Source: Eubacteriales bacterium
GTDB lineage: Bacteria > Bacillota > Clostridia > Oscillospirales > CAG-272
Direction of reading: 5' to 3'
NCBI GenBank assembly: GCA_045596925.1
Contig: JAZODH010000075.1
Span: 1 to 54,491, forward strand
DNA length: 54,491 bases
Shown one piece after another: positions 6,791 through 54,491 of this stretch. The notes under the pieces are model-generated. The model saw nothing but the letters and a program-made list of their open reading frames with translations, was not told where the DNA came from and did no database searches. The position numbers and the translations under genes are program-made. The first letter of the stretch is position 1; each line of letters starts with the position of its first letter.

Positions 6791-7033
6791 TTATATGCTC
6801 TTTATTTGCGCAATGCAAGTGTGACAAACCCTTTTGCCGCCGAAGAAGATCACGTCGTCCGCATTTCCGCAGAATATGCAGGATGGTTGGTATTTCATCA
6901 AAATTATTCTGTCCTCGTCGGTGAAAATCTCAATGGCGTCTTTTTCTTTGATGTCCATGGTCTTTCTGATCTCCATGGGAAGCACGATCCTGCCCAGTTC
7001 ATCTACTTTGCGAACGATTCCGGTTGATTTCAT
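6791..7033 (-). CDS. abrB: AbrB-family transition-state regulator
   Basis: MKSTGIVRKVDELGRIVLP and C-terminal CIFC...VCHTC. Confidence 0.93.
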   Translation of the reverse strand: MKSTGIVRKVDELGRIVLPMEIRKTMDIKEKDAIEIFTDEDRIILMKYQPSCIFCGNADDVIFFGGKRVCHTCIAQIKSI

Positions 7034-20483: not shown

Positions 20484-20660
20484 CTTTTTCTCCTTGTTGG
20501 GTTTTTGTTTTTTCCTTCTTTGCTTTCCGTTTTCGTGTTTATTGATATTATATATCAATACTCTATTGCCGTCAAGTATTTTTTCTTGCTTTGTTTTTTT
20601 GTGTTCTTGTCATTTTACAAATAAACGGGCGAAGACGTAGACCGTCCTCGCCCCGAAATG

Positions 20661-48179: not shown

Positions 48180-48228
48180 GACCGCAGCAGAAAACGACGG
48201 CAACAAGCCGTCGTTTTCTGCTGCGGTC
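48180..48228. terminator. 22-bp-stem hairpin downstream of spoVT
   Basis: GACCGCAGCAGAAAACGACGGC-AACAA-GCCGTCGTTTTCTGCTGCGGTC. Confidence 0.75.
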
Positions 48229-48254: not shown

Positions 48255-48722
48255 TCAGGTCTCCAGCTGACGTCCCAGAAATGAGGCGGCAGTTTGTATG
48301 AGCTTTGCTTCGATCTCGCCGTTGCTCATCTGATTTTTAGAGTCACCGTCGCTCATGACTGAAGCAACGCAACCAATGATGTCCCCCTCGGAGAGGATGG
48401 GCATGGCACAGCTGACGTAATGAGGTGCGCCGTCGGCGGTGACGGGGATCTTTTCCGCGCCGTCGCGCCAGGTGTAGAGACTTCTGTTTTCGATCAGGGA
48501 TTCAAGCTCGCCGGAGAGCGGCTTTTCCGAGTATTCTTTTTTGGGCACGCCCGCGCAAGCGATAACTGCGTCGCGGTCGCAGATGACTACGGACAGAGAG
48601 CAGGTCTTGTGCAGGGTCTCGGCATACTGACCCGCAAATTCGGTAAGCTCACCTATGGGTGAGTATTTTTTGAAGATGACCTCCCCCTCGCGGTCGGTGA
48701 AAATTTCCAACGGGTCGCCCTC
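48255..48722 (-). pseudogene. spoVT: 3' portion of interrupted stage V sporulation protein T gene
   Basis: EGDPLEIFTDREGEVIFKKYSPIGEL...ICDRD...PILSEGDIIG...TAASFLGRQLE corresponds to SpoVT from about residue 30; the MKATGIVRRIDDLGR N-terminus is not in the window. Confidence 0.9.
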
Positions 48723-50465
48723 GCTGATAACATTGACAGTATAAGCCTTAGTCGGCTGATTTACCGACTTATGGGTGTACTTGGTACTAAATGCGCTACC
48801 TATACTGTCATAATTAAAATTTACGTTTTCCTCTCGGCAGGGAAGTGTACCTGTTTTGAGCAGTTGTTCAATATCCGTTTTCAGCTGAATATCGACTGTG
48901 TTGCTGTCGAAAACCGAAATTTTGTCAACGATAAGGGAGATGTCCGACTTGCTCAATTTTTCTTTGGCTAAAATATCGTCAAAGACATCGAACACGGTCT
49001 TTGCTACTCTCGCGATCTCAACGATAGAGCTTCGTTTTTCTATGCAGTCCTGTAACTGTGCCTGGCACCCATAGATTTTGTGGGTTACTTCTTCTTCCAA
49101 TTCTCTGTAGGTCTCCTCGATTAAATCCTCGTCGTCGGGGTTTTTGCATATATCCTTGATCTTTTGCTTTTTCAGCGCCTTGAGCTCCTCTTTTGCGCTG
49201 TCAAGCTGTTTTTCTAAGATTTTGATGATCTTGTCGCTGTCCTTTACGGACTCTCCCTCGACGGCGATGGTTTTCTCAAGCTCGGAGATTATGCTTTGAC
49301 AGTTCTGCTTTATCAGGCGAACGTAATCCTTCAGAACCGAGTCGAGAAAATCAATTCTTGTGTTGTGCGAAGAACAGGCTTTGGAACCGCGCTTGTGATA
49401 GGTTCCGCAAATATATGACGAGGGCAGGTCGGGTCGGCTTCGGCTGAACATCGGGCTCTGGCAATCTCCGCAGAACAAATATCCCGTATAGGGAGTTTCG
49501 TATTTTTTTGTGCCGCGATAGTGTGATGTTGACCTTTTTGCTAACAGCTCTTGAGTGTATAAAAATGTCTTGTCGTCGATTATGGCTTCGTGGTGCTTCT
49601 CAATCACGATGTGTTCGCTTTTGTCCAGCCGCTTGTCTGCTCCTTTGATGCTTTTTCTTGTGTACTTGTGTCCTCTGAAGGTGCCGATGTAGTAATCGTT
49701 TTCGAGAATTGATTGAACGGTTATTATGCTCCATTCATTCTTGACAGTTCGGTTGTAGCTTTTGTCCTCCGCTTCGGCGCGTTCCTTTTCCTTCATTCTT
49801 GGGGTGGGGATATTCTTGTCGGTGAGATGGTTTGCGATTTTTTTGTATCCCATACCCTTCTCCGAATAAAGACGGTAGATCTCCTTTATAACCTCTGCCT
49901 CGTCGGGAACAACGGCAACTTCGTTTTTCTTCTGATTTTTGATGACGTAACCGTACGGAACGGCGCAAAGCCATTCGCCTGCCTGTTGCATACTTGCGAT
50001 ACTTTTTCTCACGCTTTCGCTGGTGGTGGTTACGGGCATTTCGTTGAATACGAAATGCATTGCGATCAGCTGCCAGTTGTTGTCGGTGGGATAGTCTACA
50101 CTGTCCATTATGCTGATGATGCGGATCCCCTTGTCACGCATCTGCTCAAGTTCCCAAAGACCGAGGCTGGTTCGTCTTGAAAAACGGGAGAAGTTTTTGA
50201 CTATGATTATTTTTGACTTGCCGCTGAGCAGGTTTTTCTTCATAGTCATGTAATTTTCTCGTTCCTCGAAGGTGTAACCCGATCTGTCGCGGTCAACGTA
50301 TTCCTTTACGGTGCAGTTGGGGAAGTGTTGCTTGACGAACGTATTTATAATTCTCAACTGGTTTTCGATTGAGGTGTTAGAATCGCTTTCTTTTTCGGTG
50401 TCTACGGAAATTCTCGCGTATGCGGAGATCTCCTCTCTCAATTCATAATCGGGAGTCGTTACCAT
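48255..50465 (-). CDS. Large serine recombinase fused in frame to the C-terminal part of SpoVT
   Basis: YARIS catalytic Ser, DRDRSG, VKNFSRFSR, VPYGY, Zn ribbon CGDC...C...C and coiled coil (residues 1-581), followed by the SpoVT sequence. Confidence 0.93.
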   Translation of the reverse strand: MVTTPDYELREEISAYARISVDTEKESDSNTSIENQLRIINTFVKQHFPNCTVKEYVDRDRSGYTFEERENYMTMKKNLLSGKSKIIIVKNFSRFSRRTSLGLWELEQMRDKGIRIISIMDSVDYPTDNNWQLIAMHFVFNEMPVTTTSESVRKSIASMQQAGEWLCAVPYGYVIKNQKKNEVAVVPDEAEVIKEIYRLYSEKGMGYKKIANHLTDKNIPTPRMKEKERAEAEDKSYNRTVKNEWSIITVQSILENDYYIGTFRGHKYTRKSIKGADKRLDKSEHIVIEKHHEAIIDDKTFLYTQELLAKRSTSHYRGTKKYETPYTGYLFCGDCQSPMFSRSRPDLPSSYICGTYHKRGSKACSSHNTRIDFLDSVLKDYVRLIKQNCQSIISELEKTIAVEGESVKDSDKIIKILEKQLDSAKEELKALKKQKIKDICKNPDDEDLIEETYRELEEEVTHKIYGCQAQLQDCIEKRSSIVEIARVAKTVFDVFDDILAKEKLSKSDISLIVDKISVFDSNTVDIQLKTDIEQLLKTGTLPCREENVNFNYDSIGSAFSTKYTHKSVNQPTKAYTVNVISEGDPLEIFTDREGEVIFKKYSPIGELTEFAGQYAETLHKTCSLSVVICDRDAVIACAGVPKKEYSEKPLSGELESLIENRSLYTWRDGAEKIPVTADGAPHYVSCAMPILSEGDIIGCVASVMSDGDSKNQMSNGEIEAKLIQTAASFLGRQLET

Positions 50466-50498
50466 GTTATATATTTCCTTTCGGTATCATCTTGCAAT

Positions 50499-50527
50499 AT
50501 TGTAACACAAAATTTCAAAAAAATCAA
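50499..50527 (-). promoter_or_regulatory. Sigma-A-type promoter of the serine recombinase
   Basis: TTGATT-17 bp-TACAAT with extended TG; AAGGA RBS downstream. Confidence 0.65.
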
Positions 50528-50607
50528 GTACCTTATAAAAAATATGCGGCACAATTTGTACCGCATTGGTGTATGTTATGTCTTTAGAGTAGGATCTTTT
50601 TTTCAAT

Positions 50608-50838
50608 TTATGCCGCAGAGTGGGCGTGTGTGTTTCGGCGGAGCAATTCCGACGTGGCGGACATCAAGTCGCCGTTGCCTGAACGGTAGATGACCTTTTT
50701 GAATTTGTCGTTCGGTGCTACTTTCGTGAATATTTCATTGATCTTGTTCATAAAATTGGGCGCTTCGGTGTCCTCTTTGTTGCACCAAAACTGCACGACC
50801 TTGATTTCATCGTTTATTGTTATTCTGATATTTCTCAC
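50608..50838 (-). CDS. Small hypothetical protein upstream of the recombinase
   Basis: AAGGAG RBS, GTG start, 76 aa, hairpin downstream. Confidence 0.7.
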   Translation of the reverse strand: MRNIRITINDEIKVVQFWCNKEDTEAPNFMNKINEIFTKVAPNDKFKKVIYRSGNGDLMSATSELLRRNTHAHSAA

Positions 50839-50991
50839 TCCTTTCTTCTTAATTATTTGGTTAATAAAATTTGTTTTATTCGCTTTGGAAAAGCGTTTGA
50901 GTACCGTATTGTTTTTTAAAAAATCGTATCCTTAACTCCTGTTTTGTGTGTTTCTATTAACAGTATGTTGGATAATCTGTATTCTCAATTT

Positions 50992-51942
50992 TTAAGTTAG
51001 CAAATAGCTCGCCACAGTCACGTCGCAACGAAAATGTGCGAGATGAAAGACACTGACCGCCATAAGGCAAAGCTTATTATATTTAGTCGGCAAGCCCCTT
51101 GATTTTGCCAATTTTCTGTTCTCGCCACGCAAGTGATAGTTGCCTTGTATTAGATGCTCCTTGAACAGTGCCGGCTTACCGGTTTTCTTGTTTATTTTTG
51201 TTGTTTCGTATCGTAGCCGAACCTCTTGTTCCAGTTGTTCCCTACCTTCCTTTGTTTGACACAGGAACGCATAATAGTCATATGCCCTTTGCGCTTGCAA
51301 AGCGCGAAGATGATGGTAGTCTATCTTATTTTTAAATTCCTCGGGTGAAAAAATCAGCTCGTCGGGACCTTTGTCGCGGAAATAGGATTTTACGAATTCC
51401 ACGTCCTCAGGCAATAATCTCTGTTCCTGTCGGCGTCCTCCTTTTCCTTTTTCAACTATTACTACGGGGGACCCACTCCCGTCGTAGCCAAAGTCTCGGC
51501 CCTTCAATCGTTTAAGCTCTGCCCGTCTGATTCCGACGCACATCTGGAACCCCACCGTTCTTGCGTACTTAGGATTAGAAATATCATTATCGCTGTGTTG
51601 AGCCTTGCCGTTATCACCGCGACTGCGCTTGTACTGTGCGGTGACGCGCTTCGGCTTCTTTATCCCATCCAGTGGGACGCTATGAAACAGTCCCACCGGA
51701 GCGAGGTATGAATGTACGGTCGATGCGGACAAGCCTCGGCCTACCAGGTGGTCAGCATATTCCTGGATATGCCGACCACATTCGTCTTTGGTTCTGCAAT
51801 CGAACTCCGATCTGCAGAAATCTATGAACCGTTTATAATTGGAAACGAATGCTCGGCGAGTGACGTTATTGTCGTATTTATCGAAGAACCTGCGTGCATC
51901 GTCGAGCATCTGACGGGTAACCGTCTTTTTTCTTTGCTTCAT
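50992..51942 (-). CDS. Tyrosine recombinase / integrase-family protein
   Basis: STVHSYL, GIRRAEL (R), KGKGG (K), HHLR (HxxR), LAH and C-terminal Y; AAGGAG RBS before ATG 51942. Confidence 0.88.
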   Translation of the reverse strand: MKQRKKTVTRQMLDDARRFFDKYDNNVTRRAFVSNYKRFIDFCRSEFDCRTKDECGRHIQEYADHLVGRGLSASTVHSYLAPVGLFHSVPLDGIKKPKRVTAQYKRSRGDNGKAQHSDNDISNPKYARTVGFQMCVGIRRAELKRLKGRDFGYDGSGSPVVIVEKGKGGRRQEQRLLPEDVEFVKSYFRDKGPDELIFSPEEFKNKIDYHHLRALQAQRAYDYYAFLCQTKEGREQLEQEVRLRYETTKINKKTGKPALFKEHLIQGNYHLRGENRKLAKSRGLPTKYNKLCLMAVSVFHLAHFRCDVTVASYLLT

Positions 51943-51962
51943 ATCTGTCAACTCCTTTCGAT

Positions 51963-52009
51963 AGGAGTATGAAAGATATAAAAAATAAAAAACGGCTTTT
52001 GAATGAGTA
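51963..52009. repeat. Outer inverted repeat, left copy
   Basis: 39 of 47 nt identical, ungapped, to the reverse complement of 53965-54011. Confidence 0.85.
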
Positions 52010-52118
52010 TTTTTTGGCATTTTTAAGGTAACGAGGATTTCCGGTAAAATTACACTTCGATTTCTTCTCTTTATGTGAATGAAAAATGACCTCCGTCAAT
52101 GGCAGAGGTCGGTTTTGC

Positions 52119-52547
52119 TTATTGGGTTTTCGGTTTCTTGATCTTAAGTTTCAGCTCCGGCGGAATTTGAATGGTGTACAACGTATAGAAATCCGTGTTG
52201 TTCTTTATGTTCATAGCCAAAACCACAAAATCGTCCAGAGTATTTTTGGGACCGAAACGATGATCCGCCCAAAATCCGAAGCGTGTTCTTTGGTCTGCGC
52301 TGAAATCAAAGAACATACTGCCCAGATAATTCATCTTGGACAGAAATTTCGGTTGGCCTCGGCTGTTGAAGATGGCCTCTGACAGTCGGAAGCTGTTGCA
52401 GACCACCTTTTGAATTTCAAATTCTTGCGGGGGTATTCCCTTGTCCTTCGTCAGCCTGTCCAGTTCTTTTTGGGTGATCGGAAACGGTATCCAGACCCCC
52501 TTGGATTTTTCCTCTTTTGCAATTAAGATCTTGATTTGTTGCTTCAT
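52119..52547 (-). CDS. Hypothetical protein with ArdA N-terminal-like pattern
   Basis: GGAGG RBS; GVWIPFP...EL...GI...MNYL pattern; own terminator hairpin at about 52083-52115. Confidence 0.6.
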   Translation of the reverse strand: MKQQIKILIAKEEKSKGVWIPFPITQKELDRLTKDKGIPPQEFEIQKVVCNSFRLSEAIFNSRGQPKFLSKMNYLGSMFFDFSADQRTRFGFWADHRFGPKNTLDDFVVLAMNIKNNTDFYTLYTIQIPPELKLKIKKPKTQ

Positions 52548-52608
52548 TTTTTCCTCCGTGAATTTTATTTGTTAAACATCACGCTCCTGCTGTGTTTAAC
52601 CTTCAACA

Positions 52609-52628
52609 TAAATATGTCAGAAAACGGA
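52609..52628. repeat. Inner inverted repeat, left copy
   Basis: TAAATATGTCAGAAAACGGA, exact reverse complement of 53082-53101. Confidence 0.92.
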
Positions 52629-52733
52629 ACCCGTTAATTTTATATTCTTACGTTTTCTTTCATACTGTTTTTAGACGGAAAACACTTGTTGGAGTACAAG
52701 ATCATTTCCGAACAAAATTTTGGAGGAGTACCA

Positions 52734-53030
52734 ATGAAAAACAACAAATATTTCGAATTAAAATGCACTATCGATCACGGTGAACAGCTGTCAATACGCA
52801 TCCCCGACTCTTGTCGAGAAAATTTCCATTACACGATTTCCGGCAGAGACGAAAGCGCAATGGCATGTTTGACCGAGCTGTTTGGCGAATATGCCAAGCT
52901 GGACACAGTCAAACGCAAGACGTTTCAGGCATTGATTGACGAGCGTGCAGACCAGGTATCCACGTTGGACGATCTGCTGGTGTTGCTCAAGGTAGTGCGT
53001 CTTTGTGACGTATACGTACCAAAGAGATGA
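52734..53030 (+). CDS. Hypothetical protein, weak ArdA-like pattern
   Basis: GGAGGAG RBS; KLD...TFQALI...TLDDLL; terminator at about 53036-53064. Confidence 0.6.
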   Translation: MKNNKYFELKCTIDHGEQLSIRIPDSCRENFHYTISGRDESAMACLTELFGEYAKLDTVKRKTFQALIDERADQVSTLDDLLVLLKVVRLCDVYVPKR

Positions 53031-53081
53031 TCGGGAAAGGGCGAGATAAAAATCTCGCCCTTTTGTTACTTTTTATGAGTC

Positions 53082-53101
53082 TCCGTTTTCTGACATATTT
53101 A
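53082..53101. repeat. Inner inverted repeat, right copy
   Basis: TCCGTTTTCTGACATATTTA. Confidence 0.92.
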
Positions 53102-53162
53102 AGGCAAGATGGAATACAAGTTTTGAGTAATTCATCAAAAACATAAAATGGAGGACAGACAA

Positions 53163-53660
53163 ATGTCAAAAACCAAAAGGCAAAAGCAAGAACCGGTGTA
53201 CATGCAGATTGAAAAGTTTGCAAACGAGAAACCGCTGTTTCTGCGGGTTCCAAATCATTTCCAAACGATAATGGACAGATTGATACAGCAAGATGACATA
53301 AAGGATTACCGCAATTCAAAAATCGTTCTGAAGATTTTTTGCGAGGAATTTACAAAACTGAATACAGAGGAACGAGATAAGGTAAAAACGTTGATCAACT
53401 GCAAGATCGCTCCGGCGGAAACTTTTTTCGATCTTATCACGATTATGCAGCAAAGAGACCGCTACTATATTCTTGATGGGGTCGACACGAACCAAAAACT
53501 CGGAGAATTCCATATCTTCGCGGCCAGAAATCAGGCGATGGATAATTGGGCGGCCAAAGAAGACTACGCAAATTCCAAGCTGGTCGGTAAAAAAATCAAA
53601 AATGCTGAGAAAGGCGTGTTTTATCAGAACAGTTACGTAGGAAAATATGGTTGTTTTTGA
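53163..53660 (+). CDS. Hypothetical protein with ArdA C-terminal-like pattern
   Basis: GGAGG RBS; DLI...YYILDGV...LGEF...DY...G...EKGVF...YV; terminator at about 53670-53700. Confidence 0.65.
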   Translation: MSKTKRQKQEPVYMQIEKFANEKPLFLRVPNHFQTIMDRLIQQDDIKDYRNSKIVLKIFCEEFTKLNTEERDKVKTLINCKIAPAETFFDLITIMQQRDRYYILDGVDTNQKLGEFHIFAARNQAMDNWAAKEDYANSKLVGKKIKNAEKGVFYQNSYVGKYGCF

Positions 53661-53964
53661 ATGAAAAGAAGCGGCGAGATCTTATGATCTCGCCGTTTTT
53701 CCGTAACATTTTGAATGTAAAAATCTTTACAAGCCTTGAAAATAAAGGATTCTTACATTGCACAAGCACGTCCAGCTTTGATTTTGGTTTTGAAAGAGAA
53801 ATTGGCATTGGAGGTAGGATTGTTGACGTTTGGTTTGGCTTTATTTGAATATTTATTTTGCATGATTGATTGAAAAACATTAAAAGAGATTCGACCTTGT
53901 TAGAAAGGGAAATAAAAAATCAACTATGAAGTGTCTGTTTTAGGAGAATGTTTTTTATAAAAAT

Positions 53965-54011
53965 TACTTATTCAAAAGCAACTTTTTATTTTTGCTTTCT
54001 ATCATACTCCT
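53965..54011. repeat. Outer inverted repeat, right copy
   Basis: TACTTATTCAAAAGCAACTTTTTATTTTTGCTTTCTATCATACTCCT. Confidence 0.85.
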
Positions 54012-54065
54012 TTTCGCAGGGCAGGGGAACTGTTGTGATCAAATCATTATAAAGGAGTATAGAAA

Positions 54066-54491
54066 ATGGCAAATTACACACGCGCTATCAAAACCGACGT
54101 CTGGATCAATAAGGATTTCAGGAAAATGACACCTCAAGAGAAAATCTTCTGGTTTTACCTACACACAGGCTATCATTCCTCCGAGACGGCACTATATGCG
54201 TGTCCAGTTGAAGACATCGCATTGTTTTGCGGCATTTCAAAGAAGAAAGCCAAAGAGATGATCGATAAATTCTGTGAGCAGGGAAGTATCTCATACGATT
54301 TTATGACGGACGAGCTTCTTGTCAAGGATTACTTTGATTATCACCCGCCCATCGGCGGCCTGTACTACAGAATGTACTCAAACGATCTTGCGAAAATCAA
54401 ATCTCAACTACTGATCGACGAGCTGGTGGAGATGTCAAAGAAGTACAAGATTTCACTTGCATTCTTTGCCGCTCTCCGTGACCTCCGTCCC
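54066..54491 (+). CDS. Phage-type replication initiator N-terminal domain, truncated by window edge
   Basis: Not in the ORF track. AAGGAG RBS; MANYTRAIKTDVW...MTPQEKIFWFYLHT...IALFCG...ISYD...ELLVKDY, open to the window end. Confidence 0.65.
   Translation, partial: MANYTRAIKTDVWINKDFRKMTPQEKIFWFYLHTGYHSSETALYACPVEDIALFCGISKKKAKEMIDKFCEQGSISYDFMTDELLVKDYFDYHPPIGGLYYRMYSNDLAKIKSQLLIDELVEMSKKYKISLAFFAALRDLRP

Follow-up and report, generated by a model that had tools for sequence, protein, structure and literature searches.

The DNA analysed here, called the window, is a stretch of 54,491 nucleotides from a Eubacteriales bacterium of the Oscillospirales (CAG-272; assembly GCA_045596925.1, genome G000 in what follows). 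It is the entire contig JAZODH010000075.1 (C75) of an assembly that consists of 99 contigs, totals 1.98 Mb and is 95% complete, and it ends inside an integrative element of which about 5.8 kb are visible. At the edge of this element the sporulation regulator gene spoVT is split, and its 3′ part continues the open reading frame (ORF) of a large serine recombinase (LSR), next to which lies the gene of a candidate recombination directionality factor (RDF). The features of this junction are as follows:

48182-48226, minus strand: hairpin terminator with a 20-bp stem, 3′ of the spoVT stop codon, seen in the sequence
48255-48719, minus strand: spoVT 3′ part, SpoVT from G31 to the end (154 aa) plus stop codon, by SpoVT_C and spore_V_T matches
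48255-50465, minus strand: fused ORF of 736 aa, recombinase and SpoVT C-terminal part in a single frame
48690-48738, minus strand: attR, made up of the element arm TGTCAA (48738-48733), 13 nt, the core GGCGACCC (48719-48712) and the spoVT arm
48720-50465, minus strand: recombinase-specific part, fused-ORF residues 1-582, an LSR by Pfam
50499-50527, minus strand: sigma-A-type promoter-like site of the recombinase, TTGATT-17-TACAAT with TG
50544-50566, minus strand: terminator-like hairpin between the 76-aa gene and the recombinase promoter
50608-50838, minus strand: 76-aa partner gene, candidate RDF by its homologues and a complex model

In Pfam searches the fused ORF matched Resolvase (PF00239, residues 15-165, 1.1e-16), Recombinase (DBD1; PF07508, residues 187-311, 1.4e-23), Zn_ribbon_recom (PF13408, residues 325-383, 4.4e-11) and SpoVT_C (PF15714, residues 606-735, 6.1e-39). 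Positions 27-180 of the 180 positions of the NCBIfam model spore_V_T (TIGR02851) align to residues 580-735, with a score of 161.3 that stays under the cut-off of 235.9 because spoVT is truncated. Lacking its own start codon, the spoVT part forms the C-terminal end of the recombinase ORF, and it is 91% identical to the intact SpoVT of two relatives, G004 and G009. Element and gene meet at the codons S-E|G-D-P, where the window has YTVNVISEGDPLEIFTDREGE and intact relatives have RTMRIREGDPLEIFTDREGE, so that the protein runs YTVNVIS-E|G-D-P-LEIFTDREGE in the window as against RTMRIR-E-G-D-P-LEIFTDREGE in the relatives. A previous reading of this DNA from its letters alone (the sequence-only reading) had the first 29 or so codons of spoVT replaced by element DNA and the gene still followed by its terminator; the former is right to within a codon, residues 1-30 being replaced, and the latter is the 20-bp-stem hairpin listed above.

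The GC content is 0.52-0.55 on the host side of the junction and 0.36-0.46 on the element side, and the relative G004, which is free of the element, is syntenic (83.6% over 8743 nt) only as far as 48728. A 12,860-nt contig of an independent public run, X2, spans the junction (piece 48265-50844, about 92% identity). In two unrelated runs (X1 and X5), contigs start at window positions 48695 and 48706, that is 6-17 nt past the att core on the spoVT side, which may reflect a branch of the assembly graph at the att site or chance.

The recombinase retains the residues expected of its class, with Y16, R18 and S20 of the resolvase domain (the latter being the nucleophile serine) and the zinc-ribbon cysteines C332, C335, C353 and C364 of DBD2 all invariant among 17 homologues. 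It is 28-30% identical to TndX-type plasmid-borne recombinases, and the NCBIfam models XisF (6.6e-19) and CcrB (5.2e-29) match it far below their family cut-offs.

The attachment sites were reconstructed by aligning 16 attR and 18 attL junctions. The core GGCGACCC is common to attL and attR, and the attP rebuilt from the element arms reads TGTCAA-N13-GGCGACCC-N13-TTGACA, a site of 46 bp with dyad symmetry, from which we infer that crossover probably occurs at the central GA (48716-48715). Exact and uninterrupted, this attP was found once in metagenome_contigs, in contig L064 (10722-10767), where it sits directly at the end of a homologous recombinase of 576 aa with a small conserved gene adjoining; viral_contigs gave 0 matches to attP. 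Judging from these sequences, attP lies within the 3′ end of the recombinase ORF, whose native tail is conserved in the excised form (xxTLTxxxRFxxAMxDLxKRxG), and since attP is inside the gene, integration swaps this native tail for the SpoVT fusion.

In L064 a TGA interrupts the recombinase frame immediately behind GDPTQITLT, and past this codon the usual tail, WEKFYIAMEGLAGRLG, follows in the same frame; the same contig carries a second serine recombinase and a transposase. An outer motif, ACACAG, stands at +28 versus +23, a 5-bp shift between attP and attB that was seen by eye in two sequences and is not used as evidence.

We found the same junction in many other gut Clostridia. Relatives were searched with a probe made of 13 residues of the recombinase tail and the SpoVT part, and within the genus the fusion was present in 5 of the 16 genomes having a spoVT match, the rest holding an ordinary spoVT. 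In a family sample, 249 of 301 genomes matched (251 matches), and among the 150 family matches listed of these 251, 19 start inside the recombinase tail and have open frames of 713-822 aa where the contig allows. A junction-specific DNA pattern recovered at least 120 species records from genome_contigs, with labels that include Acutalibacteraceae, Oscillospiraceae, Ruminococcus, Faecousia, Lachnospiraceae and Pseudoflavonifractor; three of these attR records are cultured isolates, labelled Pseudoflavonifractor phocaeensis An858, Ruminococcus sp. Marseille-P6503 and Lachnospiraceae bacterium B68. All 16 fusions that were read closely are in frame (DKVFxVNVIS-x-GDPLEIYTDREGEVIFKKYSPI). A SpoVT part of 147-156 aa is kept in 108 of the 109 attR loci with the downstream stop in view, and an in-frame recombinase of at least 568 aa in 75 of the 80 loci with the upstream stop in view. 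The decayed loci include L130, in which a nonsense codon breaks the recombinase (ILSK*TLERN), L101, with a stop 105 codons upstream of the core, and L081, where the arm alone remains. One genus relative (G003:C18:9352-9879, L015) has an in-frame TAA near spoVT codon 8-9 and is otherwise intact and element-free.

The opposite end of the element was found as well: 18 of 25 carrier genomes contain a spoVT 5′ fragment, consisting of the promoter, codons 1-33 and then an element-coded tail of 20-43 aa before the stop. None of these 25 fusion carriers was found to have a second full-length spoVT. For seven genomes a single contig contains both ends, on one strand and 8.0-33.6 kb apart:

G076: ends 8.0 kb apart
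G330: ends 12.4 kb apart
G329: ends 15.9 kb apart
G332: ends 16.2 kb apart
G333: ends 18.2 kb apart
G240: ends 31.6 kb apart
G312: ends 33.6 kb apart

Being on the same strand, the two ends form direct repeats, which is the orientation that excision requires.

Some genomes hold remnants or additional copies of these ends. G334 (C10:43000-62500, L190) and G335 (L127, L191) each have an intact spoVT and, some 15 kb downstream of it, an attR arm of 20 nt with another copy of the spoVT 3′ part; these fossil arms are without a recombinase, and the two 3′ copies share 94.9% nucleotide identity (22 mismatches in 490 nt) with one amino-acid difference. In G012 (C51:5200-5349 and 20525-20644, L034/L035) and G333 (C11:288498-288608 and 300397-300495, L186/L187) the unit of spoVT promoter, codons 1-33 and element arm is doubled, the two copies lying 12-15 kb apart on one strand, with differing element tails and with host-like carbohydrate genes and no recombinase between them. 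The two promoters of G333 are identical over about 62 nt, and the distal core of G012 is mutated. A possible account of the doubled copies would be that an older piece of an element arrived by homologous recombination within the 5′ region of spoVT and that a new element then entered the remaining intact copy.

Beyond the 76-aa gene, the part of the element seen in the window contains the following genes:

50992-52020, minus strand: 342-aa protein with weak tyrosine-integrase likeness (phrog_1, 4.6e-5), no Pfam or NCBIfam family
52119-52547, minus strand: 142-aa protein, no Pfam or NCBIfam family, with homologues in G010 and on G000:C51
52686-53030, plus strand: 114-aa ORF, no family found in Pfam, PHROGs or NCBIfam
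53148-53660, plus strand: 170-aa ORF, no Pfam or NCBIfam family, with a weak homologue in G010
54066-54491, plus strand: DnaD-like replisome organizer (phrog_1701, 6.2e-17), cut by the contig end

The 342-aa protein has homologues in G010, G012 and G329 and a paralogue on G000:C51, and the DnaD-like protein is 71% identical to a 202-aa protein of the G010 element.

The cargo of the seven complete copies was read by eye from their ORF lists, with Pfam run on nine ORFs, and it varies from copy to copy: polysaccharide-synthesis (glycosyltransferase) clusters in G240 and G312, a type I restriction-modification system with HipA and Fic in G332, defence-like genes in G333, a two-component system and a large surface protein in G329, and transporters in G076 and G330. 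The G240 element encodes a MobA/VirD2 relaxase (PF03432, 5.4e-33), NikA/MobC, an HTH_36 protein and an AAA/DUF4143 ATPase, and mobilization genes were recognised by eye in the G333 and G312 elements; a relaxase is absent from the 8-kb G076 copy, and none is visible in the window's 5.8 kb of element. The ORF lists of the seven complete copies, read by eye and in part scanned with hidden Markov models, show no phage structural or lysis genes, and PHROGs matched the six window ORFs searched only with the integrase-like and DnaD-like hits given above. A phage origin was considered and rejected, given the lack of phage structural genes and of attP in viral_contigs. By gene content, then, the islands appear to be non-phage, and at least some members appear to be mobilizable.

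The recombinases of G240 and G045 are 97% identical and their SpoVT parts 62%, which implies that the element moves horizontally; across 17 fusions the identities of the two parts are poorly correlated (r = 0.34). Collectively, these results make it practically certain that the attR end in the window belongs to a family of islands that move horizontally and insert site-specifically by means of an LSR, with spoVT codons 31-33 as their attB. That a serine-recombinase integrative element interrupts spoVT had been proposed from the letters of the window, and the att sites, the complete copies in relatives, the horizontal transfer and the candidate excision factor all agree with it.

The far end of the copy in G000 was searched for throughout the assembly. 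The SpoVT N-terminus (residues 1-30, an AbrB-type domain) was not found by tblastn with G004 SpoVT, an attL-like site was not found with the attL regular expression, and no second SpoVT_C domain was found beside the single one in the window. The 10 kb upstream of G009 spoVT have no DNA match in G000, and the proteins encoded there match paralogues only. The low-GC contig C51 was considered as the missing part of the element and rejected as a different, related module: at G000:C51:3368-11735, beside ffh, it carries homologues of the 342-, 142- and 114-aa proteins of the window together with a tyrosine-integrase-like gene. The only other close SpoVT/AbrB-type N-domain of the window's contig belongs to an AbrB-like protein of 80 aa (6884-7033, minus strand) with a Cys-rich C-terminal tail (CIFCG...CHTC), and a further AbrB-type match in G000, on C36, is an unrelated family member.

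The gene that the island interrupts acts in the forespore. Upstream of several spoVT 5′ fragments we found G(N)ATA-17-xAxAxTA motifs, which we take to fit the forespore sigma-F/sigma-G consensus. The sequence-only reading had treated spoVT as a forespore gene, and this accords both with these motifs and with the accessible part of a C. difficile study, in which spoVT depends on sigma-F/sigma-G and a spoVT mutant forms no heat-resistant spores (PMC3789822); for B. cereus, the accessible part of a second study reports a severe sporulation defect upon spoVT deletion (PMC5061766). Other sporulation genes of the carriers are preserved: SpoIVA is uninterrupted in 25 of 27 carriers, the misses being one 90%-complete genome and one 1.2-Mb record, and in five of five carriers SpoVAC/SpoVAEB are uninterrupted and a small acid-soluble spore protein (SASP) is encoded. 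This suggests that the carrier hosts, as judged from their genes, still look like spore formers; literature searches on spore formation by carriers returned nothing relevant.

Next we consider the 76-aa protein encoded beside the recombinase, whose homologues of 76-111 aa adjoin the recombinase in 14 of the 19 elements searched. The family has no match in Pfam (two members scanned), NCBIfam (three members) or PHROGs (the member of G000). A complex of the 76-aa family with recombinase residues 170-600, both supplied as alignments, was modelled with a score of 0.80 (runs 0.80, 0.83 and 0.79) versus 0.00 for the best of three controls; the mark of 0.80 is reached by 58 of 80 solved complexes and by 2 of 110 mismatched pairs, counts that are rough with user-made alignments. 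The runs share at least 64% of contacts, and the pLDDT of the partner is at least 77. In the model, contacts fall on recombinase residues 373-392 and 491-548, and residues 46-59 of the partner add a strand; the predicted interface flanks recombinase residues 393-490, which may hint at a coiled coil inserted in DBD2. According to the accessible part of PMC12286644, verified RDFs bind the junction of zinc domain and coiled coil, often by strand addition, and the modelled interface of the 76-aa protein is at this same junction. The adjacent protein is, on this prediction, a candidate RDF of the recombinase. Transfer, too, depends on excision, so that the presence of an excision factor alone is no pointer to sporulation. 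Regular expressions for sigma-E, sigma-K and sigma-A sites have no match upstream of the small gene.

These observations can be joined in one scheme. The island would insert by site-specific recombination into spoVT codons 31-33 (G-D-P), and integration would remove the recombinase's own tail of about 25-45 aa and fuse the enzyme in frame to SpoVT from residue 31 to the end. The far end would keep the spoVT promoter and codons 1-33 followed by the recombinase tail, as a short ORF. In the integrated state the cell would have no intact spoVT, and the gene would be restored only by precise excision between attL and attR, carried out by the recombinase and a directionality factor, the 76-aa protein being our candidate for the latter. 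The sequence-only reading had reasoned that restoring spoVT would call for excision in the heritable spore chromosome, and as logic this is sound. We infer excision and its timing from this arrangement, and on balance we think it probable that precise excision occurs in nature and makes the split of spoVT reversible. Regarding timing, a coupling of excision to sporulation, or its restriction to the forespore with the circle kept, is a rather doubtful proposition; a stochastic excision that gives cured spores can be put forward only tentatively, and the same degree of doubt applies to the view that excision never happens. Within the reversible reading, the sporulation-coupled and the stochastic form are about equally likely. 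If excision is scheduled, it might take place in the forespore or just before septation, the circle riding in the spore and re-integrating after germination, a sequence of events that we consider unlikely though conceivable. It is a comparably speculative part of the scheduled scheme that the native tail in the circle versus the SpoVT-GAF fusion in the integrated form would signal whether the element is free or integrated and would favour one direction of the reaction.

Several observations weigh against restoration of spoVT by excision. The promoter-like site of the recombinase is of the vegetative sigma-A type, as it is in 10 of 12 upstream regions, and of 14 elements only 3 have a match to a sigma-F/G-like regular expression upstream of the candidate RDF, against 0.24 expected; as the expression was derived post hoc and the sequence is A-rich, these matches are not counted as support. 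With frequent horizontal transfer many insertions may be young, so intact spoVT fragments and sporulation genes are weak evidence for restoration of the gene. The recombinase frame is interrupted or missing at 5 of 80 loci. The in-frame fusion follows from one ancestral arrangement, with 1 chance in 3 of being in frame, and does not in itself argue for a function. In G000 no far end was found, so that the excision competence of this particular copy is unproven. No carrier assembly, including those of the three cultured isolates, shows an intact spoVT beside the split copy. Likewise, no attB or attP joint was seen in the run contigs (4 of 22 listed runs examined, with related-sequence shares of at most 0.18 and one contig across attR), and as assembled contigs these show neither excision nor its absence. 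One joint in the run contigs, 48743-50359, was not trusted, one of its sides being 21 letters long.

Much of this would be expected if the insertion were a dead-end knock-out, in which spoVT is lost for good, carriers are asporogenous or have immature spores, and the family persists by vegetative growth and frequent transfer, the intact fragments being those of young insertions. The recent and frequent transfer (97% versus 62% identity), the lack of an excision product in any assembly or contig set, the vegetative type of the recombinase promoter and the decayed copies (5 of 80) are all in its favour. However, the insertion recurs in at least 120 species records whose hosts keep SpoIVA (25 of 27), SpoVAC (5 of 5) and SASP (5 of 5) uninterrupted, and 108 of 109 spoVT 3′ parts are intact. 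The elements also keep a recombinase, a partner predicted to bind it and direct att sites, which together would amount to a full excision kit, and an intact spoVT is present where the recombinase was lost (G334 and G335). We consider a permanent loss a serious but minority explanation, and continue to favour a split that excision can reverse.

Other explanations have far less to recommend them. The fusion of recombinase and SpoVT (GAF) could itself be selected, for instance as a ligand- or state-sensing recombinase, and the 16 of 16 fusions in frame, the long frame kept in 75 of 80 loci and the strong promoter-like site that drives it would fit; yet a single ancestral position of attP accounts for the frame, the recombinase and SpoVT parts differ in history, and the excised form has its own conserved tail, so that the native enzyme ends differently, all of which makes selection for the fusion improbable. 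It is less probable still that the element supplies a replacement spoVT or that an unlinked second spoVT exists. The intact spoVT with a downstream attR arm and second 3′ copy in G334 and G335, and the merely 95% completeness of the G000 assembly, leave some room for it, but in G000 a single SpoVT_C domain and no SpoVT N-terminus were found, the ORFs at the far ends extend only 20-43 aa past the core, and the 25 fusion carriers are without a second full-length gene. The sequence-only reading had allowed both for a replacement spoVT part from the far end and for a second intact spoVT, and neither is upheld: far ends encode SpoVT 1-33 and a tail only. Lastly, a chimeric contig or a binning error could have joined a mobile element to spoVT, as might be feared for a fragmented assembly of 99 contigs with a contig that ends inside the element, but the junction is identical to the base in at least 120 other species records, a contig of an independent run spans it, and matching 5′ junctions are found in other genomes, which makes an artefact extremely improbable.

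If spoVT is rebuilt in the reversible manner that we favour, this would be a rearrangement of germ-line DNA in bacteria, with loss or re-entry of the element, and if excision is indeed scheduled in the forespore, it would be the first DNA rearrangement of a sporulating bacterium that is both programmed and reversible and that takes place in the heritable compartment. Should spoVT stay split, a common mobile element shuts off the spore maturation, transmission and persistence of abundant gut anaerobes, and meanwhile delivers genes for defence, surface polysaccharides and transport. With three cultured isolates among the carriers, the question can be put to a direct test. In addition, the recombinase, the 46-bp attP and the candidate RDF would make up a compact new recombination unit.

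Among the papers that our literature searches listed, none reports an element in spoVT, article supplements such as recombinase target-site tables being outside their scope. TndX of Tn5397 is among the closest named plasmid-borne relatives of the recombinase (28% identity over 71% of the query), and TndX-type elements, like some of the islands described here, carry cargo and a Mob-type relaxase module along with an LSR, at a distant sequence relation; TnpX of Tn4451 likewise accompanies a Mob-type module. We know of no TndX/TnpX-type element that targets spoVT. XisF of the Anabaena fdxN element and the Ccr recombinases of SCCmec share the common LSR architecture and are distantly related, and XisF acts in developmental excision in the heterocyst, a terminally differentiated cell. 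Reversible switches of host genes are formed by the phage in comK of Listeria and by SpyCIM1 in mutL of Streptococcus pyogenes, which share with the spoVT island that the element would need to depart, and perhaps come back, before the host gene works, and which differ in being phage-like and in residing in a host cell that is not a germ-line compartment. An attP inside the integrase gene, such that integration changes the integrase C-terminus, occurs in Mx8 of Myxococcus and SSV1 of Sulfolobus; these are tyrosine recombinases, whereas the new C-terminus of the spoVT element is a folded host domain, the 154-aa GAF-like part of SpoVT.

The closest comparison is with the elements that intervene in sporulation genes. 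In the accessible parts of the studies that describe them, all interrupt genes of the mother cell and leave the chromosome in that cell alone, the spore keeping the element (PMC4191935, PMC5595907, PMC6957869), a pattern ascribed to the mother cell being disposable (PMC4191935, PMC6957869). Like skin in sigK (SpoIVCA), SPbeta in spsM (SprA/SprB), vfbin in spoVFB, vrin in spoVR and gin in gerE, the spoVT element is an island inside the coding sequence of a sporulation gene. As in the skin, SPbeta and gin type, an LSR gene lies beside one att site, the att sites are short and partly symmetric, and excision would rejoin the reading frame exactly; like gin (PMC5595907, accessible part), it is not a prophage. 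The spoVT family differs in having attP inside the recombinase ORF and in being mobile between genera with variable cargo. Its anatomy is that of skin, SPbeta and gin, but it fails one defining feature of the class, the mother-cell host gene: those elements interrupt mother-cell genes, and this family, by targeting a forespore regulator in at least 120 species of gut Clostridia, breaks the pattern.

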